A stretch of DNA of 64,000 nt from a bacterium (GCA_030697705.1 JAUYPE010000005.1:602-64601); one strand, 5' to 3'; counted from the first letter of the stretch, positions 4,621 through 53,235 are shown. The notes: generated by a model not told the origin, from the sequence alone. Made by a program: numbers and translations.

Positions 4621-5145
4621 ATGGAAGTTACCAAGCTCTTTTTACAACTGCTAGAAACACAAGGATGGGTATCGTGGATCTCACATGGTGTTTGGGATGC
4701 CCATCAAGCAGGACTGCTTCCCGATGTTAGTGTTGGCGGGAATTGTCCGGAGAACCTCCGTCTTAAGCTCCAGCAGAATGTTCCCTATCCGACATTTTTT
4801 GAAGAGGATCAGTGGAATAGTGTTCTTGATTATTGTGGAATGAGAAGTGGAAACAGTACTGCCTATGTGAGCGATAGGACAAATACCTATTATATCAAGA
4901 GAGCGACAATCGCTTTCTTTGAAGACAAAGTGGGGTATGATGTGACTTGCAGAAAAGAACGGCGCAAGAATTTTCGGCGCTATGGGCTACCAGTTACTTC
5001 CATGCATGTTACTCACCTTATTGTAGGGTGTGCTCAATATACTGCGGCGCATTTTGCCGAGCTTCGCGACCAAATAATGCTGCGACTCAATCAGGGAGAT
5101 CCAGGAGATATAGTGAAAATAGCCAAGATACTGAAGATATCTTAA
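4621..5145 (+). CDS. hypothetical protein (174 aa), no recognisable domain
   Basis: Strong SD (AAGGAGAAATCTG-ATG). ORF MEVTKLFLQLLETQGWVSWISHG...; lower GC than flanks; convergent with the adjacent toxin-antitoxin pair. Confidence 0.55.
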   Translation: MEVTKLFLQLLETQGWVSWISHGVWDAHQAGLLPDVSVGGNCPENLRLKLQQNVPYPTFFEEDQWNSVLDYCGMRSGNSTAYVSDRTNTYYIKRATIAFFEDKVGYDVTCRKERRKNFRRYGLPVTSMHVTHLIVGCAQYTAAHFAELRDQIMLRLNQGDPGDIVKIAKILKIS

Positions 5146-5216: not shown

Positions 5217-5474
5217 TTAGCGGTAACTGTCTTTGCGATGGTCAACATCAAAAAAGATCACAACCTCCGGATTTTGGAGATAGAAAAAGGCGCGATAGCG
5301 CCGGGTAATCCGAAGAGAGAATACCCCTCCCGTGTCATGTAGCTTTTTACCGTGAAGCCGTGGGTCGCGTGGACTTTCCTCAAATCGTTCCAGTTGCACA
5401 TCACAGAGTTTCTGAATCTCTTTTGGCAGATTCCGATAGGCACGGTCAAAATCGACGGTACGAAAAACTTTCAT
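5217..5474 (-). CDS. type II toxin, RelE/ParE superfamily
   Basis: 85 aa: ...KKLHDTGGVFSLRITRRYRAFFYLQNPEVVIFFDVDHRKDSY matches the RelE/ParE core. The start overlaps the upstream gene's stop by 4 nt (ATGA). Confidence 0.8.
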   Translation of the reverse strand: MKVFRTVDFDRAYRNLPKEIQKLCDVQLERFEESPRDPRLHGKKLHDTGGVFSLRITRRYRAFFYLQNPEVVIFFDVDHRKDSYR

Positions 5475-5674
5475 ACGCCAACGGGCGGATATTCCTTGAG
5501 CGCTCGACGAAGCGAGTGGCGGATGCGCTTGGGATGTTCGTACTCCTCAAAATGATCTTCGGGTAGTACCAAAGTGACTTCACTGCGAAGGAGCCGAACT
5601 TCGCGCAGTAATGATTGAAGCATTTGGGCGTTTGACTGCTTATTTTTTACTTTCTGTATTTTAGTAGTAGTCAT
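5471..5674 (-). CDS. putative antitoxin partner of RelE/ParE toxin (67 aa from MTTTKIQ...)
   Basis: Small ORF immediately upstream with 4-nt start/stop overlap with the toxin gene. Sequence ...LQSLLREVRLLRSEVTLVLPEDHFEEYEHPKRIRHS; family not recognised. Confidence 0.55.
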   Translation of the reverse strand: MTTTKIQKVKNKQSNAQMLQSLLREVRLLRSEVTLVLPEDHFEEYEHPKRIRHSLRRALKEYPPVGV

Positions 5675-25334: not shown

Positions 25335-25458
25335 TACTTGCGTTAAGGAGAGGTTACATAGGTGGTCTCGTGCGCACGATTGTTCCCGATTTGTCCAAGA
25401 TTCCGAGTTTTTAAGAACGAAGAAATCTTGGCTCACAAATCACAATCCCGTACAAACC

Positions 25459-25545
25459 GGAGGCGTCGCATAGTGGCCTAGTGCGCTCGCTTGGAAAGCG
25501 AGTAGACCTTAACCGGTCTCGGAGGTTCGAATCCTCCCGCCTCCG
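25459..25545 (+). tRNA. tRNA-Ser (anticodon GGA), 87 nt, long variable arm, discriminator G, no encoded CCA
   Basis: Acceptor GGAGGCG/CGCCTCC; anticodon stem CUCGC/GCGAG with loop UUGGAAA; variable arm AGACC-UUAACC-GGUCU; T-arm GGAGG-UUCGAAU-CCUCC. Confidence 0.9.
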
Positions 25546-25612
25546 GTTTGTACGGGAGAAAGCGTGTCTTAGGTTTTAGATACCTGTCAATACACTCATT
25601 TTATGTAGAATT

Positions 25613-43819: not shown

Positions 43820-43863
43820 AAAATAAAATGACTTTCCCTGCTTGTGGAAAGTCATTTTATTTT
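43820..43863. terminator. perfect 18-bp-stem hairpin AAAATAAAATGACTTTCC-N8-GGAAAGTCATTTTATTTT (bidirectional terminator between recA and rpsR)
   Basis: Direct reading. Confidence 0.7.
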
Positions 43864-43879
43864 GAGAGGTAATAATTTT

Positions 43880-44092
43880 CTATCGTGTGGTGAACGGTAC
43901 GAGGGCGAGAGAGCGGGCGCGTTTGATAGCGGTGGCAAGTTCGCGTTGGTGGGAGGCGCAGAGACCCGATTTCTTACGCGGGTAGATCTTGCCGCTCGCG
44001 CTCAAAAACTTACGGAGATTCTCCACATCTTTATAATTAGCGCCACTGCGGCTCGTCGTACAAAAAAAGCACTGTTTTTTATTCTCTTGCAT
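43880..44092 (-). CDS. rpsR: 30S ribosomal protein S18
   Basis: [53 protein letters not shown]. Confidence 0.9.
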
Positions 44093-44098
44093 ATTATG

Positions 44099-44259
44099 AG
44101 ACCCACTGCTTAATAACCTTTTCTACTCCGACCGTGCTTTTTCGGCTGCAAACAACTCATCGCTCGTCGATGAATACCTTGCATTCACCTCCTCGCGTTT
44201 CATTGTTTTCGCCCGAAAAAGCATGGTCTCGCTACGAAAAATTATTAAGCAGTGGGTCT
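44099..44259. repeat. 161-nt nested-hairpin element with perfect 18-bp terminal inverted repeats (AGACCCACTGCTTAATAA / TTATTAAGCAGTGGGTCT), wedged between ssb and rpsR; paralogous to 53065-53223
   Basis: Perfect outer IR plus an inner IR (CGACCGTGCTTTTTCGG / CCGAAAAAGCATGGTCTCG). Internal sequence blocks are shared with the dnaB-upstream copy. Confidence 0.6.
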
Positions 44260-44260
44260 A

Positions 44261-44788
44261 TTAAAAAGGTATATCTTTGACATCTATTTCTTCTCCGTCT
44301 TCCGGAAGCTCAATAATGGGCGGTTCTTCCTGTCCACCGCCGTCAGCGCGTGCCGACGGTTGATTCTGATTGTTCCGGTCGCGCGATGGCGTGCTGTTAT
44401 ATCGCTCTCCGCGCATCAGCGATGCTCCTTGCTCTTGTCCTCCGCCCATTATCGCTCCCGCCGGTCGCGGACCGAATTGAAATTCATCCACGACAATTTC
44501 AGTGCGGTAGTGTTTGACACCCTGTTGATCCTGCCATGAGCGCGTTTGCAGTCGCCCCTCAATAAACATACTGCTGCCTTTTTTCATGTACTGGGCGATG
44601 ACCTCGGCCTGTCGTCCCCATGCGACCAAATTATGGAATTCCACCTGGTCGCGCTTCTGCCCGCTCGCGTCGTTGAAGGTGCGATTGGTCGCAATCCCGA
44701 ACGTGCACACCGGCTGACCGCCGGGCGTTTGGCGAATTTCCGGGTCGCGTGTAAAATTGCCGAAAAGGAATACTTTGTTGAGGTTCAT
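44261..44788 (-). CDS. ssb: single-stranded DNA-binding protein
   Basis: OB fold (MNLNKVFLFGNFTRDPEIRQTPGG...), Gly/Gln-rich linker, C-terminal DIPF. Confidence 0.9.
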   Translation of the reverse strand: MNLNKVFLFGNFTRDPEIRQTPGGQPVCTFGIATNRTFNDASGQKRDQVEFHNLVAWGRQAEVIAQYMKKGSSMFIEGRLQTRSWQDQQGVKHYRTEIVVDEFQFGPRPAGAIMGGGQEQGASLMRGERYNSTPSRDRNNQNQPSARADGGGQEEPPIIELPEDGEEIDVKDIPF

Positions 44789-44873
44789 GGGGTTAGTTTG
44801 TAGTAAGTAGTTGGTAGGGGATAGAGGATGGTATCTTCGCTTTTCCTAAAACCTATCCACTAAAATCTACTCA

Positions 44874-45344
44874 CTATTTTCCTAATATCTCTTCCAATTT
44901 TTTATCCAACGCCTCTAGATCCAACTTGTCATCCGTCTTATCCGCCTCGCGGAGTATGACCAATGTTTGCTGTTGGGTGCGCGGCGGCATGGCGGGGCGA
45001 GCGATGGCGGCGTCAAAGGGCTTCATCTGGCGCAGCTTTTGCTTGTGCTCGTCCTGTTGGATAACCATAAACCGCAAAAGCTCCGGTATGGTTTGGAGTC
45101 GCTTTTCCAAACTCGCTATCTGCATCGGTTCGCACCGGAACGCTGTCCAGCCAAAATAAGCGTTCCGCTCTTTTTTGACCCGATATGCTAAGCGATACCG
45201 CGAGGGCTGTTCCGCATGCTGGATGAGCCCTTTGACCTCCTCAATCAAGTTATTGAGCTTGTGGGTATGCCCCAGTGCCTCCTCCTCGGGTATGGAGGGG
45301 GAGAGTAGGTAGGCAAGCTCATACGACCGTGGTTCTGATTCCAT
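44874..45344 (-). CDS. rpsF: 30S ribosomal protein S6 with C-terminal extension
   Basis: YELAYLLSPSIPEEE...YRLAYRVKKERNAYF...RFMVI. Confidence 0.8.
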   Translation of the reverse strand: MESEPRSYELAYLLSPSIPEEEALGHTHKLNNLIEEVKGLIQHAEQPSRYRLAYRVKKERNAYFGWTAFRCEPMQIASLEKRLQTIPELLRFMVIQQDEHKQKLRQMKPFDAAIARPAMPPRTQQQTLVILREADKTDDKLDLEALDKKLEEILGK

Positions 45345-45508
45345 AGTCCATTGATACTACAAAAAGGAACGGCTGTCCACAAGGTTGACAGAACCGTAAT
45401 TTCTTTTTATACTCTTACTTGAGTCGTTGTTATGTTATTCCGAATAATAGAGGTGCCCTCATGTTGCCATCGGATGAATTATAATTCGGTGGCATTTTTT
45501 TGTTTTTC

Positions 45509-46609
45509 TTAAACTCTAAACTCAACGACATCGCCGTCCTGGACGATATATTCTTTACCCTCTATGCGGAGTAGGCCGAGTTCGCGGGCACGGGCGTATG
45601 AGCCGGCTTCCAGTAGTTTTTTATAATGGATAACTTCGGCGCGGATAAATTTTTCCTCAAAGTCGGAGTGAATGGTGCGTCCCGCTTGCGGTGCGGTGGA
45701 GTCGGCACGAACCGTCCACGCCCGTGTCTCGTCCTCGCCCGTCGTCAAAAAAGTAATGAGTTCGAGTGTGTCGTATGCCGTGCGAATGAGCCGGTCGAGT
45801 CCGCTTTTTTCAAGACCGATACTCGCAAGATATTCTCGCCGTTCATCGTCGCCGAGCTCCGAAAGCTCCGCTTCTATTTTTGCGGAGACGGCAATCCATG
45901 GAGCCAAACCAATTTTTTGCTGAAGTTTTTCATCGGGTTGCCAATGGTGCTGGATTTGCCGTTCACTCACATTAAAGATATAGAGGATGGGTTTTGCCGT
46001 GAGGAGATTGAGCTCGCGATCAATGGTCGTCATCGTCTCGCGTTGGGACATTGAAAAATGTTCCAGGGCGGCGCGGGCGAGTAATCCTCTTTCCAATTCT
46101 TTTTGTAAAAACTCCAGCATTACGGCTATTTCTCCAGCTCCTTTCTTCTTCGCACGGGCATCGGTATGAGCCGTTGCCAGACGCCGCGTTATCGTCTCCA
46201 GATCTTTTAGGATAAGTTCATACTCGATAACTTCAATGTCTGAAACGGGGTCGGGTGTTTCGGAGACATGGATAATATCACCGTCCTCAAAAATGCGTAC
46301 GACCTCGGCGATAGCGTCCGTTTCGCGAATGTGCGTAAGAAATTTATTGCCAAGTCCCTCACCCTCCGCCGCACCCTTGACGAGTCCGGCGATATCCACG
46401 AACTCAATGACCGCCGGAACGACTTTCTGTGAATGCGACAGTGCGGTAAGTTGAGCAAGCCGCTCGTCGGGAACGGGAACGACACCCACATTGGGCTCAA
46501 TAGTGCAGAACGGATAATTTTGGATATCAACTTTCTGGCGCGTGAGGGCGCTGAAAAGGGTTGACTTTCCCACATTCGGCAAGCCAACTATGCCTATCTT
46601 TAAAGACAT
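45509..46609 (-). CDS. ychF: ribosome-binding ATPase YchF
   Basis: [23 protein letters not shown]; TGS C-terminal domain ([13 protein letters not shown]). Confidence 0.95.
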
Positions 46610-46742
46610 ATCGCGCCATGATATAACAAAAAAACACGAAGATCAATCGGTAGGCTGTTGACAAAAAAACGGGTAAGGATTACAAGTATAAGTATGTGTG
46701 TTGTCCGGAAAAAACGCGTGCGGGCAACACAAGAGGAGAGAG

Positions 46743-47531
46743 ATGATGAAGTGGATTGTTTCCGTAAGTATGGTTCTTTTTTTAGCGCTGTGGATCGCGT
46801 CTCCTGTGACTGCGGGGAGTGCCGTCACGGGATTGCCATCCCATGCGCAGATCACGGCGGCGCTTGAAAAGGCGTGTGCCAAGGGGGTTAATAACGGATC
46901 CATTTTCTCGCCGTGCGAGATGTGGGTCGGCGTGGTGCGTCTTGACGGGACAGTCGCCGTTGTCGCCAAGAACGGCCATGATCCCTGGAAGGGCAGTCGG
47001 GTCATCGCCATGCAGAAAGCGAATACCGGGCGTCTTTTCAGTAAAGATCGGGGATTAGCGCTTTCAACGGCGAACTTGTTCAGTGCCGTGCAGCCGGGAG
47101 GGAGTTTGTTCGGGTTGCAATTCAGCAACCCCATTGACACGCACACGGCGTATCGGGGACCTGCCACGCAGTATGGCACGCTAACCGACCCGGCAGTTGG
47201 TCGGCGCGTTGGAGGTGTAAATGTGTTCGGCGGAGGTCTGGCGTTGTATGATGCCAAGGGACGCATCATCGGCGGATTGGGTGTGAGTGGCGACAGTCCA
47301 TGCGCCGATCACAACATTGCGTGGCGTATCCGTCACGCGCTCGGTCTTGATCATGTCCCTGCGGGTGTTAACAAGGCCGGATACGGTGGAGCAGTGGCGC
47401 CGGTCACAGGTGATGACAACATCATCTATGGACCGGGAGGTTTTTCCCACGCTGAATGCGGATTCGGCGAAAAGACCGTTACCGATCTGCCCGCCGTCTC
47501 TCCAGTTCCGACCGCCACAGCTATGAAGTGA
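46743..47531 (+). CDS. secreted GlcG/HbpS-like (DUF336) heme-binding-fold protein
   Basis: Signal peptide; GGLGVSG motif characteristic of DUF336. Confidence 0.65.
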   Translation: MMKWIVSVSMVLFLALWIASPVTAGSAVTGLPSHAQITAALEKACAKGVNNGSIFSPCEMWVGVVRLDGTVAVVAKNGHDPWKGSRVIAMQKANTGRLFSKDRGLALSTANLFSAVQPGGSLFGLQFSNPIDTHTAYRGPATQYGTLTDPAVGRRVGGVNVFGGGLALYDAKGRIIGGLGVSGDSPCADHNIAWRIRHALGLDHVPAGVNKAGYGGAVAPVTGDDNIIYGPGGFSHAECGFGEKTVTDLPAVSPVPTATAMK

Positions 47532-47644
47532 AAAAACAACTACCCGCACGCGTTTTAACCAGACCACTTTGCATTCGTGCGGAGTGGTCGGTTCTTTTTA
47601 TAGGATTGTATCTGCAGGTGTTATAGTGATAAACTAGAAAAACT

Positions 47645-48451
47645 ATGAAAATTACCAATCTTAAAAAACTCAAACCAAAAGAGGCGATTGTCTTTGATCT
47701 TGACGGTACGGTTGCCCCGACCAAGGCGCCTATAGACGCGGAGATGGCGACGCTGATCACGCGCCTGCTTGCCGTGCAGAAGGTCGTCATTATCGGTGGC
47801 GGCAAATACGGTATTTTCAAGACCCAGTTCCTTCAGCAGTTAAAAGCTCCAAAACCTCTTCTGAAGAATCTTTTTCTCTTTCCCGCCACGGCAACCTCAT
47901 TTTATAAATATGACGCTGGCTGGAAAAATATCTACGCGCTCCATCTGACCACGGCAGAAAAAGAAAAAATCAAAACAGCGTTTCGCGATGTATTTGAAAA
48001 AACCGGTTATCACCATCCTCGAAAAGTATACGGCAAGGTAATTGAAGACCGCGGCACGCAGATTACGTTTTCGGCGCTGGGTCAGGATGTCGTCGCGGTG
48101 CTTGGGGCGAAACGGGGAGTTCCGTTGAAAGAAAAATGGTTGCATGAAAACCGCGCGGTCAAAATGAACATGGCAAGACACCTCGCCAAGCTTCTGCCGG
48201 ACTTGGAGGTGCACGCCGCAGGATTCACCTCCATCGATATAACCAAAAAAGGCATTGATAAGGCGTACGGTCTGGAACAAGTTAAAAAGCATCTGGGAGT
48301 GGAAATAAGAAGTATGCTTTTTGTGGGAGACGCAATCTTTCCCGGCGGCAACGACTACGCGGTCGTCAAAACGGGAGTGGATTATGTTCCCGTAAGCGGA
48401 CCAGCTCAAACGAAAACGATCATTCGTGCGCTCCTTGCCAAGGGGGAATAA
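47645..48451 (+). CDS. HAD-IIB hydrolase, phosphomannomutase (eukaryotic-PMM)-like
   Basis: FDLDGTV motif I; GGNDY motif IV; PMM-like cap. Confidence 0.7.
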   Translation: MKITNLKKLKPKEAIVFDLDGTVAPTKAPIDAEMATLITRLLAVQKVVIIGGGKYGIFKTQFLQQLKAPKPLLKNLFLFPATATSFYKYDAGWKNIYALHLTTAEKEKIKTAFRDVFEKTGYHHPRKVYGKVIEDRGTQITFSALGQDVVAVLGAKRGVPLKEKWLHENRAVKMNMARHLAKLLPDLEVHAAGFTSIDITKKGIDKAYGLEQVKKHLGVEIRSMLFVGDAIFPGGNDYAVVKTGVDYVPVSGPAQTKTIIRALLAKGE

Positions 48452-48813
48452 TGAAGATGAGCGAATGAGGTTATATTTGACTTTATTCACCTCTATGTTA
48501 TATTGGTCATCGTCGTGAGTATTGGTTGTTTTTGCAAGAAAGAAAAGAGGGGGTGCTCGTAATGGATACAATTCATACGACGAATAGTGTTGAAGGTGTA
48601 GAAATAGAACGCAAGTGGCGGCTGTTTCGCTTACCGCCGCGTGAAATTCTGGGAAAAGGGTATATGCGGTGCCAGGGGTACTTAATCGTGGAGTATCAAG
48701 GACCGCTTAAGCCGCTTATGACCATTTAAGTATAAGGGTTCTCAAGCATATTTTGCGGAGGAGCCCTTTTTATTTTGAGAATATTCGCGTGTGGTGTATG
48801 ATGCTTCGTATCC

Positions 48814-49899
48814 ATGAGTGTAGAATTTTTCATAATTGCCGTGGTGGTTGTAGCTGGATTCGTCGGCATTTTTTTCGTATTGGTGAAACGGACGGGGAGG
48901 CAGGAGGTCATACCGCAAAACAATGACACTCTTTTACTTTTGCAGAACCAGATAAATGAAATCGCTCGGGCGCTGGACGGGCGGATGGCGGAATCATCGC
49001 GTCTCATGCAAACACAATTTGGAACGATGCAGACCGCCATGCAGTCGCAGGTGGGAGCGAGCGCGCGAATCGTGCAGGAGGTGACGGAACGGCTGACCAA
49101 ATTAGACGAGACGAACCGGCAGGTTGTTGGTTTTGCCGATCAGCTCAAAAATTTGCAGGATATTTTGAAAAACCCCAAACAGCGAGGGATTTTAGGGGAA
49201 TATTTTTTGGAGACCTTGCTCAAAAATGTCATGCCGCCCGGGAGTTTTCAGATGCAATATGCCTTCCCCGACGGGCTCGTTGCGGACGCGGTTGTCTTCG
49301 TCAAAGAGAAAAAAATCTGCATTGATTCAAAATTTTCATTGGAAAATTATAATCGTATTCTAGTCGCCGGCGACGCTGTGGAGCGCGAGCGGTTGGAGCG
49401 GGTTTTTCGTGCTGACCTCAAAGACCGCATTGACGAAACGGCGAAATATGTAAAGCCGGATCAGGGGACGATGGATTTTGCATTTATGTTTATTCCCGCC
49501 GAGGCGATTTACTACGACCTTCTCGTCAATCAAGTCGGCGCGGTGAAGGTCAATACCCAGGACTTAATTCAGTACGCCTTTAAAGACAAGCATGTCATTA
49601 TCGTTTCGCCGACATCTTTTTTGGCATATTTGCAGACCGTTTTGCAGGGATTGCGGGCGTTGCAAATAGAGGAGTCAGCGAAAGAAATTCGCAAGAATGT
49701 GGAACAGCTCACGCGCCACATGAAAAGCTATGAGGAGTATTTTGGAAAAATTGGTACGCATCTTGGTACGACGGTTAATATGTACAACAACGCACGCAAG
49801 GAGTTCGGCAAAATTGACAAAGACATGCTCCGTATCACGGGGGAGGGAGTGGGCATGGAGCTTGAGGCTATTGAGGGTCCTGCCAACGAGGAGGGGTAG
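48814..49899 (+). CDS. rmuC: DNA recombination protein RmuC
   Basis: N-terminal TM; coiled-coil; KNPKQRGILGEYFLE; RmuC C-terminal domain. Confidence 0.85.
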   Translation: MSVEFFIIAVVVVAGFVGIFFVLVKRTGRQEVIPQNNDTLLLLQNQINEIARALDGRMAESSRLMQTQFGTMQTAMQSQVGASARIVQEVTERLTKLDETNRQVVGFADQLKNLQDILKNPKQRGILGEYFLETLLKNVMPPGSFQMQYAFPDGLVADAVVFVKEKKICIDSKFSLENYNRILVAGDAVERERLERVFRADLKDRIDETAKYVKPDQGTMDFAFMFIPAEAIYYDLLVNQVGAVKVNTQDLIQYAFKDKHVIIVSPTSFLAYLQTVLQGLRALQIEESAKEIRKNVEQLTRHMKSYEEYFGKIGTHLGTTVNMYNNARKEFGKIDKDMLRITGEGVGMELEAIEGPANEEG

Positions 49900-49955
49900 T
49901 TCCTAAAAAAAGCCATATTGCAAAAGAAAACAGTCCATGCTACCATCGAGAAACT

Positions 49956-50273
49956 ATGATACATCTCGCAGTTATTCATACGGGCGGGAAGCAATATGTT
50001 GTCTCGCCGGGGGACAAACTAAAGATAGCAAAGCTTGAGGGCGCCGAAGGGTCGGCGGTCATTTTTTCCGATGTTTTTTTGACGAGTAATGGGGAGAAAA
50101 CGGCCATCGGCACGCCAACCATTTTGGATGCACAAGTTGAGGCGACCATTCTCAAGCAAGCCCGTACGCGGAAAATGATCATCTCTAAATATCACAACAA
50201 AACGCGCTACCGCAAGCGCCAAGGACACCGCCAGCACTACACCGAGGTTGAGATTGGGAAGATAGTTGTATAA
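49956..50273 (+). CDS. rplU: 50S ribosomal protein L21 (no rpmA/L27 following)
   Basis: MIHLAVIHTGGKQYVVSPGDKLKIAKLEG... Confidence 0.9.
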   Translation: MIHLAVIHTGGKQYVVSPGDKLKIAKLEGAEGSAVIFSDVFLTSNGEKTAIGTPTILDAQVEATILKQARTRKMIISKYHNKTRYRKRQGHRQHYTEVEIGKIVV

Positions 50274-50277
50274 AAGG

Positions 50278-50303
50278 AGCCCACCTGTGGAGAGGTGGGC
50301 TCT
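50278..50303 (+). terminator. hairpin GAGCCCACCT-GTGGAG-AGGTGGGCTC after rplU
   Basis: 10-bp stem; weak U-tail. Confidence 0.5.
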
Positions 50304-50340
50304 TGGTGGAAGGCGAGCTTGGTGTTAGCAGGTAATATAG

Positions 50341-50482
50341 TTAGGACTTCCGCATTTGATTGTCATCCAGAGTCCGCCCAGGGCGGACGAAGGATCCCGT
50401 TAGATTTCAGTATACTGAATATTCACGGGATTCCTCGCTTCACTCGGAATGACGGATCAAGAGGCAAACGCGTAAGTCCTAA
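50341..50482. repeat. 142-bp palindromic element of the GTCATTCCGAG family (copy D): 13-bp terminal IRs TTAGGACTTCCGC/GCGTAAGTCCTAA, two opposed half-sites around central palindrome TTCAGTATACTGAA
   Basis: Right half rc = GTCATTCCGAGTGAAGCGAGGAATCCCGT. Left half = GTCATCCAGAGT..CGAAGGATCCCGT with an embedded CCGCCCAGGGCGG palindrome. Confidence 0.65.
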
Positions 50483-50877
50483 TTGATACCAATACCGAAC
50501 ACCTCACGCAAGTCCTGCAGGGTTGTCACGAACCGGAGCTCCTTAAGCTGGTATGGCTGGTCATTGGAGCCGAGCTGATAACCCCATTGATGCCCATTGC
50601 TGAAGGGAACATATCCATCCCATCCGGAACGAGAACTTTCAAGTATCAGATGCTTCCCCGTTTCTACGAGACACCTTAGGTTTTCATAGTTTCCACTGAA
50701 GATCATTTTCTGCGAAAAATTGCGCTCCATGCTGTCTTTGGAGCAAAAAGTGAACACGCGACACCCTGCGGCAATGGGGTCTCCGCCAGCGCGTTTGACA
50801 AGAGCGTACCTATTGGCATGCTCTTCGGAGATGACTGCAGTTACGCCGTTGTTGGAGGACGAGAAAAAGCGAGCCAT
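50479..50877 (-). CDS. hypothetical protein (132 aa), downstream of recR
   Basis: ORF only. Confidence 0.4.
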   Translation of the reverse strand: MARFFSSSNNGVTAVISEEHANRYALVKRAGGDPIAAGCRVFTFCSKDSMERNFSQKMIFSGNYENLRCLVETGKHLILESSRSGWDGYVPFSNGHQWGYQLGSNDQPYQLKELRFVTTLQDLREVFGIGIN

Positions 50878-50943
50878 TAGCTTACTCCTTAGAGTTTGGG
50901 ATAGTGCTGTTTTTGGGAAAGGACTTGTGGGGATGATAGTATA

Positions 50944-51579
50944 CTATTTCCTATTTGTCAAGGCATTGGTGAGGGTGACCTCGTCGGCGTATTCAAGCTC
51001 GGCGCCGAGCGATAAGCCGCGGCCGAGGCGCGAAATGGTGAGATGCGGGTGTTTTTCTTTGAGCGGCGAGAGAATCCGTTCAATATACGTGGCGGTCGTG
51101 TCACCCTCGGCTGTAGAACCGGTGGCGAGAATGACCTCAATCGGTTTATCGTTTTTTTGTACGAGATCCTCAACGCGATTATAGAGCGCGCGCAGATGAA
51201 GGCGTTTGGGCGAGTCGGCATCAAGTGGTGAGATAACGCCACCGAGAATATGATAGGTGCCGTGGTAGGTGGCGAGCTTTTCAAGATTGTGGAGATCGGC
51301 TTCTTTTTCAACCACGGCAATTTGGCGGGCATCGCGCCGTTCGTCTTTACAGATGGCGCAAAGTTGCTTGTCTTCTTTTGTATAAAGCTCAAGGGAACGC
51401 CAGCATTGCGCGCATTCGCCGATATGCTCGCGCATGGTTCGTAACGACTCCGCAATATCATCGGCAACGCCTTGCCGGTCTTTCAATAAAAAAAAAGCTA
51501 ACCGCGTGGCTTGGCGCGGCCCGATCCCCGGCAAGTGCGTCAGCGCATCTATTAATTCTTGTATGGGCTTGGGGTACAT
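50944..51579 (-). CDS. recR: recombination protein RecR
   Basis: HhH (LPGIGPRQATRLAFFLL); C4 zinc finger (CAQC...CAIC); Toprim. Confidence 0.95.
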   Translation of the reverse strand: MYPKPIQELIDALTHLPGIGPRQATRLAFFLLKDRQGVADDIAESLRTMREHIGECAQCWRSLELYTKEDKQLCAICKDERRDARQIAVVEKEADLHNLEKLATYHGTYHILGGVISPLDADSPKRLHLRALYNRVEDLVQKNDKPIEVILATGSTAEGDTTATYIERILSPLKEKHPHLTISRLGRGLSLGAELEYADEVTLTNALTNRK

Positions 51580-51594
51580 GAATGCTCCTGATCG

Positions 51595-53016
51595 CTACAG
51601 CGGCTCCTCAAAGTGTTTTTCAATCGGACGAAACGAAGCGCACTCTTCCTGAAAATACATCTCCATCTTGCCGGTGGGGCCGTTGCGGTGTTTCTCCACG
51701 CGGATCTCGGCGATATTTTTTTTGTCAGAATTCGGATCCGCCTTGTCGGGGCGATAAATAAACATGACGACATCGGCATCCTGTTCTATACTCCCACTTT
51801 CTCTCAAATCCGAGAGTTTGGGAATGGATGAGGGACGCATCTCAACGCCGCGCGAAAGCTGTGAGAGGGCGAGGACGGGCACGTTCAGCTCTTTTGCCAT
51901 GCCCTTTAATGAGCGCGAAATTTCCGAAACTTCTTGCACGCGTGACTCAAAGTTTGAAGAGTGGCCGCGAATAAGCTGGAGGTAATCAATAACGACGAGG
52001 CCGAGATTGTGCTCCGCCTGCAGGCGCCGCGCTTTGGCGCGAAGTTCAATAACCGACGGAGAAGGGGAGTCGTCGATGAAAATAGGCACATCGGAGAGCG
52101 ATGCCATCGCGGTCTGGATGCGCGTGAAGTCGTTGTCCGGTCCGTCGGCACGCAGATGTCCCGTGCGGAGCCGCCAAAGATCCACACTACCATGTGCGGC
52201 GATAAGGCGGTCAATGAGCTGGTCTTTAGACATTTCTAAACTGAAGAGTCCGACTGCGGTGCCGGCAAGTCCGACATTACGGGCAATATCAAGCGCGAGT
52301 GAGGTCTTACCCAAGCTTGGCCGTGCGGCAAGAACAACAAGGTCTGACTTCTGCAAGCCGCCGAGGATATTATCAAGGTCTTTAAATCCCGTGCTTATGC
52401 CGCGAAGCGCGTCCTTCTCGCGATGAATGCGGTCAATGCGCTCCCATGCTTCCTCCAACGCCTCGCGCACCGCGAAAAATTCCTGGCGCATGGAATCCTT
52501 AGCGATACTGAAAATTCTCTGCTCCGCCTGGTCAAGCAGTGCCTCCACATCGTCCGCCTCGCGGTAGCCGAGTTCCGCGATATAGCCGGAGGCGTCAATG
52601 AGATCGCGCAGAAGCCGCTTGCGGCGCACCAGTGTGGCATAATGGTCAACATTGCTTGCCGTGGGGACGGCATTGGCGAGTGTGGTGAGAAATGCTGATC
52701 CACCAATGCGCTCTAGTACTCCTTTTTCGCTTAATCTAGCCGATACGCTCAAGACATCAATAGGTTCGCGGTGATTGAAAAGGTCCAGCATCGCCTCAAA
52801 AATTTCGCGGTGGGCCGGTTTATAGAAATCGCGCGCGGCAATCGCGTCCGCGACACGAAAAATACCATCTTTGTCCAGCATAAGCGCGCCCAACACGGAA
52901 ATCTCCGCCTCAAGATTTTGCGGTGGCACGCGGAGGTGGCCGCCAATACCGGAAGATGATTTTTTTTGAACGGAAGGCATGCAGACATTATACAGCAGGT
53001 AATGCCATTGGTACAC
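51595..53016 (-). CDS. dnaB: replicative DNA helicase DnaB (true start probably MPSVQKK at 52980)
   Basis: N-terminal domain (PQNLEAEISVLGALML); Walker A LAARPSLGKTSLALD; H2-H4 motifs. Confidence 0.95.
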   Translation of the reverse strand: MYQWHYLLYNVCMPSVQKKSSSGIGGHLRVPPQNLEAEISVLGALMLDKDGIFRVADAIAARDFYKPAHREIFEAMLDLFNHREPIDVLSVSARLSEKGVLERIGGSAFLTTLANAVPTASNVDHYATLVRRKRLLRDLIDASGYIAELGYREADDVEALLDQAEQRIFSIAKDSMRQEFFAVREALEEAWERIDRIHREKDALRGISTGFKDLDNILGGLQKSDLVVLAARPSLGKTSLALDIARNVGLAGTAVGLFSLEMSKDQLIDRLIAAHGSVDLWRLRTGHLRADGPDNDFTRIQTAMASLSDVPIFIDDSPSPSVIELRAKARRLQAEHNLGLVVIDYLQLIRGHSSNFESRVQEVSEISRSLKGMAKELNVPVLALSQLSRGVEMRPSSIPKLSDLRESGSIEQDADVVMFIYRPDKADPNSDKKNIAEIRVEKHRNGPTGKMEMYFQEECASFRPIEKHFEEPL

Positions 53017-53064
53017 ATTGACAAAGATGTGCTTTTTGCGTTGCAGATAGTAGGGTGGTACATT

Positions 53065-53223
53065 AGACCTGTCCCCTTATAACCTTTCTACTGCAATGTT
53101 CACATTTCGGCTACGACTTTACAAAAATCTTGAAGCATATACAGCGTATATGTTGAAAGATTTTTGTTTTGTCTCGCTCGAAATCTGAACATCTCGTAAC
53201 GAAAATTATAAGGGGACAGGTCT
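53065..53223. repeat. 159-nt nested-hairpin element with perfect 18-bp terminal inverted repeats (AGACCTGTCCCCTTATAA / TTATAAGGGGACAGGTCT) immediately upstream of dnaB; paralog of 44099-44259
   Basis: Shares start CCTTTCTACT, TTTCGGCT, GTCTCGCT and CGAAAA blocks with the rpsR-upstream copy. Terminal stem sequences differ but remain perfectly paired in each. Confidence 0.6.
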
Positions 53224-53235
53224 ATTGAAAAAACT

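Follow-up and report, generated by a model that had tools for sequence, protein, structure and literature searches.

We analyzed a stretch of 64,000 nt of bacterial DNA (GCA_030697705.1, JAUYPE010000005.1:602-64601; the window, with positions counted from its first letter) in which two related palindromic elements lie 5' of essential genes encoded on the minus strand. The first, E1 (161 nt), takes up the space from the stop codon of ssb to the start of rpsR; the second, E2 (159 nt), lies 84 nt upstream of the dnaB ATG (52980) and has a 39-codon open reading frame (ORF) of the plus strand on its other side. The identities of S18, SSB, S6 and DnaB were confirmed by Pfam. The SSB of the window is 100% identical to an NCBI protein from a metagenome-assembled genome (MAG), and the DnaB product at NCBI begins at the ATG at 52980. 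A first-pass annotation of the window had described two elements of about 160 nt in the same orientation with perfect 18-bp terminal inverted repeats, one of them splitting the usual rpsF-ssb-rpsR operon, and had proposed either a cis-regulatory leader RNA or small RNA (sRNA) family or a transposable element of the miniature inverted-repeat type (MITE). Position, size, repeats and orientation were all confirmed, and we conclude that E1 and E2 very probably arose by separate insertion of a MITE, a non-autonomous DNA transposon found widely in the Candidate Phyla Radiation (CPR/Patescibacteria). They combine small size and lack of coding sequence with terminal inverted repeats, target-site duplication, many dispersed copies and, in the case of E1, a filled as opposed to an empty site.

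Structure of E1 and E2

The two elements are only 59% identical to each other. Their perfect 18-bp terminal repeats (AGACCCACTGCTTAATAA / TTATTAAGCAGTGGGTCT and AGACCTGTCCCCTTATAA / TTATAAGGGGACAGGTCT) have diverged, each pairing with its own partner, as had been described. The picture of a short stem closing a loop of about 125 nt had to be revised: over the whole length each element forms one imperfect palindrome with 82-nt arms that are 72-73% complementary, and a single strand of either forms one long hairpin from end to end, interrupted by internal loops. As RNA, both are far more stable than shuffled sequences (z = -11 to -15; 0 of 200 shuffles as stable), with -85.3 kcal/mol (z = -13.8) for E1 and -80.6 kcal/mol (z = -14.6) for E2. 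No long ORF is found inside the elements, which have no coding capacity. When searched against Rfam with gathering and with permissive E-value thresholds, they gave only chance matches to miRNA-precursor hairpins, far below the cutoffs. The one Rfam or ARAGORN match anywhere in the window is a tRNA-Ser (GGA) at 25458-25546.

Throughout, the S strand is the strand reading AGACC..AAUAAUUUUUCGUARCGAAAU; it is the better-folding one. A covariance model built from 35 copies of the family (R1) clearly distinguishes the strands, scoring E1 with 163 bits on the minus strand vs 79 on the plus strand and E2 with 149 vs 94 bits. The parts of both elements and the adjacent genes are listed in Table 1.

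Table 1. Window coordinates of E1, E2, their parts and the adjacent genes.
Feature	Coordinates	Strand	Remarks
E1	44099..44259	-	161-bp MITE copy, subfamily with 'GCAAACAACTCA...' interior; S strand is window minus
E1 left target-site duplication copy	44096..44098	.	ATG (plus strand)
E1 right target-site duplication copy	44260..44262	.	ATT (plus strand); overlaps ssb stop TAA (minus, 44261-44263)
E1 terminal helix, 5' arm	44237..44259	-	S strand: AGACC + variable 9 nt + AUAAUUUUU; counterpart of the IS-like inverted end
E1 terminal helix, 3' arm	44099..44121	-	S strand: AAAAGGUUAU + variable 9 nt + GGUCU; holds both conserved G residues of the U.G pairs
E1 module 1, 5' side	44229..44232	-	GCGA on S strand; internal loop with 44126-44129
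E1 module 1, 3' side	44126..44129	-	GGAG on S strand (GCAG in most copies)
E1 module 2, 5' side	44209..44212	-	GCGA on S strand; opposite 44146-44149
E1 module 2, 3' side	44146..44149	-	GCAG on S strand
E2	53065..53223	-	159-bp MITE copy, second subfamily, 'ACGACTTTACAAAAAT...' interior; S strand is window minus
E2 left target-site duplication copy	53062..53064	.	ATT
E2 right target-site duplication copy	53224..53226	.	ATT, exact match to left
E2 module 1, 5' side	53194..53197	-	ACGA on S strand; partner 53091-53094
E2 module 1, 3' side	53091..53094	-	GCAG on S strand
E2 module 2, 5' side	53174..53177	-	GCGA on S strand; partner 53111-53114
E2 module 2, 3' side	53111..53114	-	GUAG on S strand
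rpsR (S18)	43880..44092	-	ATG 44090-44092, 6 nt past E1 end; Pfam PF01084, E = 2.4e-22
ssb	44261..44788	-	Stop codon 44261-44263, 1 nt from E1; Pfam PF00436
dnaB	51595..52980	-	461 aa from ATG at 52980; Pfam; 100% identical to NCBI protein

Dispersed copies and their insertion sites

About 60 further copies were found outside the window, at most five of them within 8 kb. Scanning one genome per species (596 Gb) with the pattern AGACC-N9-ATAACC-N0-1-TTTCTAC yielded 68 loci, compared to a chance expectation of about 35 for the 18 specified bases. A matching inverted far end at 157-165 nt was present at roughly 46 of the 68, and nearly all of these belong to MAGs of CPR/Patescibacteria from many classes (Saccharibacteria, Parcubacteria, Falkow-, Yanofsky-, Berkel-, Doudna-, Portnoy-, Harrison- and Komeilibacteria). 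Often one MAG contributes more than one locus, several of them three or four each. Pattern loci outside the CPR without a far end showed no match to R1 and were therefore regarded as chance matches. In the window R1 detected E1 and E2 only, in 312 kb of unrelated CPR ssb loci four strong copies, and it added further copies to the first set, among them five in 8 kb of locus L010 (loci of other genomes are given by L-numbers), where they sit among genes for a glycosyltransferase, a NUDIX protein, an amidase, CTP synthase and L9. Two contigs binned as 'Gammaproteobacteria' contain copies with full scores (L022 3372-3532 with 150 bits; L028 1672-1836 with 137 bits), which are either mis-binned CPR contigs or a transfer outside the CPR.

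Most copies measure 157-165 bp, with a GC content of the elements between 0.21 and 0.50. Short forms of 72-81 nt consist of the basal helix and the first internal loop only, while long forms of up to 334 nt contain additional nested hairpins. Copies of the MITE-rich MAG Parcubacteria Gr01-1014_33 (L024 3406-3612; L010 1611-1790) enclose a mini-hairpin of 25-31 nt (..AAACGATTGGCAATCGTTT..), in L024 once per arm and in the same orientation, which may be a second, still smaller mobile palindrome. Other G+C-rich nested hairpins were noticed in copies of L016, L036, L042 and L048. Literature searches on CPR, Parcubacteria or Saccharibacteria in combination with MITEs or palindromic repeats returned nothing on this family, which appears to be undescribed, with neither an Rfam family nor a report in the literature searched.

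Exact 3-bp repeats flank 25 of 50 copies, whereas permuting the flanks 2000 times produced 5.8 such cases on average and never more than 14. The repeats occur in flush register only, every other offset yielding at most two. For the copy set defined by the model the fraction is 28 of 53. Since the duplicated triplets vary (mostly TAT, ATT and ACT, in addition AAT, TAA, CTA, GTC and others), they represent target-site duplications and not a fixed motif. In the window the duplication of E2 is exact, and the triplets flanking E1 agree at two of three positions.

For E1 the corresponding empty site could be identified. In relatives whose SSB is 89, 85 and 79% identical, the ssb-rpsR junction reads TAA, 7-11 nt and ATG without any element, and the contigs of all three keep the layout rpsF-ssb-rpsR-(recA). 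When E1 and one copy of the duplication are excised in silico, a junction of this type remains (TTTTAA-TAAT-ATGCAA). Among about 70 more distant CPR relatives most spacers have a length of 1-20 nt, and no copy of the MITE was found between ssb and rpsR in 80 other CPR loci or in the 312 kb of ssb loci mentioned above. The empty junction in relatives thus indicates that E1 is a lineage-specific insertion rather than a conserved leader. For E2 no empty site was obtained, the nearest DnaB relatives being at most 78% identical and having a different upstream gene order.

Long ssb-rpsR spacers of distant relatives hold palindromic inserts of 85-415 nt that are unrelated to the MITE (L072, L076, L077, L086, L096, L100, L103, L107, L113, L115, L118, L122, L127, L135, L142 and L144); R1 gave weak matches of about 21 bits to three inserts only. 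Motifs resembling TACGAATT are repeated in the inserts of L115, L127, L133 and L142. In L020, a Parcubacteria MAG, the spacer contains an unrelated hairpin repeat of about 150 nt (CCGTCATTGCGAG...CTCGCAATGACAG), and a degenerate MITE copy of about 125 nt lies just 3' of rpsR, preceded by a tandem duplication of ATAATTTATTAGACCT (features at 4972-5127 and 5330-5483). Small hairpin elements seem to have landed repeatedly at the ssb-rpsR junction.

Sorted by their direction with respect to the S strand, the neighboring genes fall into four classes, with 11 cases of co-directional sense, 9 of co-directional antisense, 10 of divergent and 8 of convergent arrangement, as judged from crude ORF calls. 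This lack of an orientation bias argues against a strand-specific function in cis and weakly against a mechanism acting on lagging-strand single-stranded DNA (ssDNA). Copies are always intergenic, lie between unrelated housekeeping genes and are frequently only 0-30 nt away from a gene end; for 23 of 106 element ends, the start ATG of an ORF with 60 or more codons is no more than 12 nt away. In L048 (952-964) the start codon of a YqeY-family gene is an ATG located in the terminal stem of the MITE (ATGCAAGAGGTCT|TAAAG...) and the Pfam profile sets in at residue 6: the insertion has taken the place of the original start codon along with the first few codons. The arrangement 'GGTCT t ATG', in which the start codon follows 1 nt past the element after a TAT duplication, was seen seven times at the 5' end of the S strand and once at its 3' end, possibly a fine-scale orientation effect, the numbers being small.

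Within the window, a perfect TATAAT is located at 52987-52992 on the minus strand, between E2 and the dnaB ATG and 6 nt from the latter, so that E2 probably lies outside the dnaB transcript, as far as can be read from this promoter-like site. The short distance from TATAAT to ATG (52978-52992, minus) also suggests a leaderless dnaB mRNA. Just 3' of rpsR, a hairpin with an 18-bp stem and a T-rich tail (43820-43863, minus) is likely the terminator of the rpsF-ssb-rpsR operon, and scans for consensus promoters and terminators revealed no convincing S-strand promoter within E1 or E2. Taken together, the terminator-like hairpin and the missing promoter-like site in E1 make it probable that transcription of the rpsF-ssb-rpsR operon passes through E1.

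The first-pass annotation favored a leader RNA or an sRNA family controlling rpsR and dnaB, in keeping with the common orientation of both window copies 5' of essential genes and with a very stable, covarying hairpin. We consider this highly improbable. The ssb-rpsR junction is empty in the closest relatives and free of copies in the other CPR loci, further copies lie beside unrelated genes in every orientation, the 3-bp duplications mark an insertion, no Rfam family matches, and E2 is situated upstream of the likely -10 box of dnaB.

Copies are shared between distant hosts. E1 is 88.2% identical to a copy in Gr01-1014_33 and 87.6% to one in JACPHC01, a MAG with only 44% (SSB) and 50% (S18) identity to the window proteins. 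Copies in MAGs of Portnoybacteria and Parcubacteria reach 76-80% identity with E2, whose unusual variable 9-mer TGTCCCCTT recurs in a Saccharibacteria locus (L008). The divergence of SSB and S18 in JACPHC01 and the recurrence of the 9-mer argue that the family has moved horizontally between CPR lineages. Searches of viral, phage and plasmid collections yielded no copy: viral contigs gave 0 matches for the 5'-end pattern and two loci for the 3'-end motif, neither of which fits the covariance model, and blastn against phage and plasmid collections gave no match.

IS5-family insertion sequences as candidate partner

A candidate for the mobilizing enzyme was found in Gr01-1014_33, whose DnaB is 78% identical to that of the window and in which MITE copies and insertion sequence (IS) material occur in the same MAG. 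One of its contigs (L161) ends with the C-terminus of a DDE_Tnp_1_2 transposase followed by GAGACCATTACAAAACTCAT. Homologues of this fragment are located on short contigs, each with a complete IS of about 0.87-0.9 kb: L162 and L163 contain an 895-bp IS with perfect 20-bp ends (GAGATGGTTGCAAAACTCAT), L164 an IS with the ends GAGACCGTTAAAAAACTC. L162 and L163 show the same IS copy with an identical left flank and differing right flanks, probably an assembly collapse over a repeated IS. Every IS has two ORFs, one for DUF4096 and one for DDE, linked through a -1 shift at A AAA AAG. The frameshift-joined transposases of L162 and L164 score 197.5 and 205.5 bits with the NCBIfam profile NF033580 'IS5 family transposase' (cutoff 110), covering positions 1-256 of 258, by which both IS are assignable to the IS5 family. 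Three-bp duplications are known for the IS1031, IS427 and ISL2 subgroups of IS5 in ISfinder, and the combination of GAG ends with such a duplication presumably fits the small IS5 subgroups. In size and two-ORF layout these IS agree with the elements of the IS1031 and IS427 groups tabulated in PMC3196728.

The ends suggest a connection to the MITE. A variant in L060 (5388-5562) matches the L162 IS end at 21 of 22 bases and, with these IS-like boundaries, is flanked by an exact AAT/AAT duplication. The canonical MITE ends, AGACC-T-ATTGCAAAAT..., bear a partial likeness to the GAGACC-type IS ends of L161 and L164, AGACC-ATTACAAAAC.... The two IS variants differ in their transposases (62-68% identity) as well as in their ends, the pattern expected if ends co-evolve with the enzyme. 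A 1.3-kb inverted-repeat pair with AGACC ends (L005 382-1693) was considered as an autonomous copy and rejected as a chance match, its right arm lying in an ORF and no transposase being present.

Because IS with GAG... inverted ends match the ends of a MITE subfamily, we infer that an IS5-family DDE transposase moves the elements in trans. The insertions are in A/T-rich triplets of very short intergenic spacers, with duplication of exactly 3 bp; E1 has entered between the ssb stop and the rpsR start and E2 the divergent region upstream of dnaB. Terminal stems that differ between E1 and E2 and still pair within each element would be expected if both ends of a copy have to fit the same transposase variant. 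In the mRNA, folding of the E1 hairpin would place the stop of ssb next to the start of rpsR again, a possible reason why the insertion is tolerated. The MITE alternative in the first-pass annotation is supported by the 3-bp duplications, the empty site and the ends in common with IS5-family elements. As a finding that would speak against its reading, that annotation had named conserved terminal repeats of a known IS-derived MITE; this nearly describes what we found, except that the related IS is newly seen and not a named one.

Covariation, strand asymmetry and comparison with known systems

In the alignment of 35 copies the consensus fold comprises 51 pairs, 34 of which show compensatory double changes. 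Paired cells amount to 94.0%, compared to 78.2% for shuffled alignments, none of 500 being as high, and 38-47% with slid partners, and the covariation score is 0.486 vs 0.185 in shuffles and about 0.1 in slid controls. The terminal helix 1 is paired to 97.7% over the 35 copies, with compensatory changes at 8 of its pairs. The covariation seen in the first-pass annotation thus holds in a larger alignment; the conclusion drawn there, selection for the secondary structure, does not follow from the terminal stems alone, since both inverted ends must fit the same transposase. Covariation of the terminal helix is explained in this way. The compensatory pairing of the interior is not accounted for by transposase recognition.

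The two strands of the elements differ markedly. In 36 of 36 copies the S strand is the one with the better fold (mean -69.2 vs -54.7 kcal/mol). Oppositions that are not Watson-Crick pairs are purine-purine on the S strand in 400 cases and on the other strand in only 29, which means that the internal loops are purine-rich on this strand. Two U.G pairs, 20-159 and 21-158, are kept in 32 and 34 of the 35 copies. Furthermore, one and the same motif is found twice per hairpin, at a spacing of about 20 nt. It consists of a helix with R-Y and C-G as closing pairs, followed by a GA/GCA internal loop. RCGAR twice in the 5' half together with GYAGY twice in the 3' half was present in 40 of 55 copies, with the halves swapped in 0 of 55, and the motif extends to subfamilies with quite different ends (GAAAC..., GAACC..., GAGATGG...). 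Interior pairing and two conserved purine-rich loops on one strand suggest that the folded single strand, as RNA or ssDNA, also matters, either for the element or for the host.

Several observations weigh against the simple view of a MITE moved by an IS5-type enzyme. The AGACC-type ends match the IS only at AGACC and about 8-9 of the next 13 positions, with a 1-nt indel. Except for the three IS loci, no transposase gene was detected in the window or in about 0.95 Mb of other CPR DNA, and the target duplication of the IS themselves is unreadable, the contigs being short and probably collapsed assemblies. Mobility is read from the sequences. Finally, a DDE transposase acting on double-stranded ends explains neither the strand asymmetry nor the conserved U.G pairs, nor the internal loops common to subfamilies with different ends.

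These features could be accommodated by a MITE that carries a functional single-stranded module in addition: its S strand would fold, either as RNA (within read-through transcripts or transcripts of its own) or as ssDNA, and a conserved CPR protein would bind the two GA/GCA loops. We take this as a possibility at clearly less than even chances. Such a module could affect RNA processing or stabilization, insulate operon expression or serve a structure-dependent step of mobilization. Besides the better fold and the mismatch bias of the S strand, the compensatory pairs, the retained U.G pairs and the duplicated helix-plus-loop motif, there is a precedent in the bcr1 repeats of the Bacillus cereus group, which are mobile, transcribed and have an RNA structure with compensatory changes (PMC3184786). 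On the other hand, without an orientation bias about half of the copies would be transcribed as the weaker strand, the S strands of E1 and E2 contain no promoter-like site, and no Rfam family matches. The copies also share ancestry, and the asymmetry may come partly from a master copy: a similar ATTTCGGGC is already present at the left end of the IS on the sense strand, so that the S strand corresponds to the transposase-sense strand and its bias may be partly inherited. A little more tentatively still, we propose that the element exceeds a purely selfish MITE: the S-strand hairpin, with its two conserved GA/GCA loops about two helical turns apart and with its ends set by the hairpin base, would be a protein-binding RNA or ssDNA module conserved across CPR classes that could aid compatibility with operons or mobilization. 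For the former, it could hold the upstream stop and the downstream start together or direct RNA processing; alternatively, it could be needed for a structure-dependent mobilization step not known for IS5-type elements.

Folded single-strand recombination sites, attC-like or REP/REPIN-like and processed by a tyrosine recombinase or an HUH (RAYT/IS200-like) enzyme, would likewise have structure conserved above sequence, one special strand and a variable apex (here 72-334 nt in total length). Together with two protein-sized modules about 20 nt apart, these features recall attC with its R and L boxes and its variable terminal structure. We nevertheless regard this explanation as very unlikely. Enzymes of this kind do not make variable 3-bp target duplications, the sequence contains neither RYYYAAC/GTTRRRY boxes nor GTAG/CGTC tags, the ends match those of the IS5 family, and no integrase or RAYT was seen beside any copy (a genome-wide RAYT search was not made). 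Integron attC sites were rejected on account of the ends AGACC/GGTCT, the housekeeping neighbors and the variable 3-bp duplications, and REP/REPIN sequences because the elements are 160 nt long, A/T-rich, without a tag and with target duplications. A retron-like reading was ruled out by the target duplication and the missing signature motifs.

The assignment of E1 and E2 to a MITE family bears on the view of their hosts. The genomes of CPR/Patescibacteria measure about 1 Mb, their intergenic spacers are very short, and they are thought to be poor in repeats. A MITE family common to many CPR classes means that these genomes are still invaded and reshaped, with insertions reaching inside the rpsF-ssb-rpsR operon and up to start codons and with dense copies in some MAGs. 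Copies about 88% identical in hosts whose housekeeping proteins are about 45-50% identical offer a marker for horizontal exchange in the CPR. The family is also a warning for annotation: the hairpin scores as a structured RNA with excellent covariation and yet is a transposon, it breaks assemblies, and it can supply start codons, as for YqeY in L048. The strand-specific loops raise the question of how MITEs coexist with compact operons. The value of the family lies in its breadth across the CPR, in its insertions at essential operons and start codons of minimal genomes and in its strand-specific conserved loops.

In comparison with known systems, attC sites and REP/REPIN sequences are alike in keeping structure over sequence, in a favored strand and in variable apex length; they differ in making no variable target duplications and in signature motifs that the MITE does not have. 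Another comparison is with the IS5 elements of the small two-ORF type (DUF4096 and DDE_Tnp_1_2; NCBIfam transpos_IS5_3) and the MITEs derived from them; the ends of the IS are those of one MITE subfamily at 21 of 22 bases. The IS copies found lie outside the window, and the interior of the MITE is not simply two IS ends joined: it forms a full-length hairpin with two conserved loops across subfamilies with different ends.

Tourist MITEs of the PIF-Harbinger group, the eukaryotic relatives of IS5, are small, non-coding and gene-adjacent, with inverted ends and A/T-rich 3-bp duplications like the family of E1 and E2, and are mobilized in trans by an IS5-like DDE transposase. They are eukaryotic and specific for TWA, whereas here TAT, ATT and ACT predominate in a bacterial host with a genome of about 1 Mb.

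Correia elements (NEMIS) of Neisseria are about 100-160 bp long, have inverted ends, a long hairpin and short and long forms, and are often found at gene starts and co-transcribed with their neighbors (PMC3184786). The likeness to E1 and E2 lies in size, inverted ends, the long hairpin, the short and long forms and the closeness to gene starts. In contrast, Correia elements duplicate TA, have unrelated 26-bp ends and are confined to a single genus. To our knowledge, no strand-specific conserved loops have been described for them.

The bcr1 elements of the Bacillus cereus group, about 155 bp in length, are mobile, have short flanking direct repeats and possess a structure with compensatory changes (PMC3184786). 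They resemble the family of E1 and E2 in these respects. Their direct repeats, however, are 5 bp long, their fold is cruciform-like with two hairpins, the sequence is unrelated and the hosts are Firmicutes. The family described here thus belongs to a well-known kind, the IS-related MITEs, and is comparable to Correia, bcr1 and Tourist-type elements.

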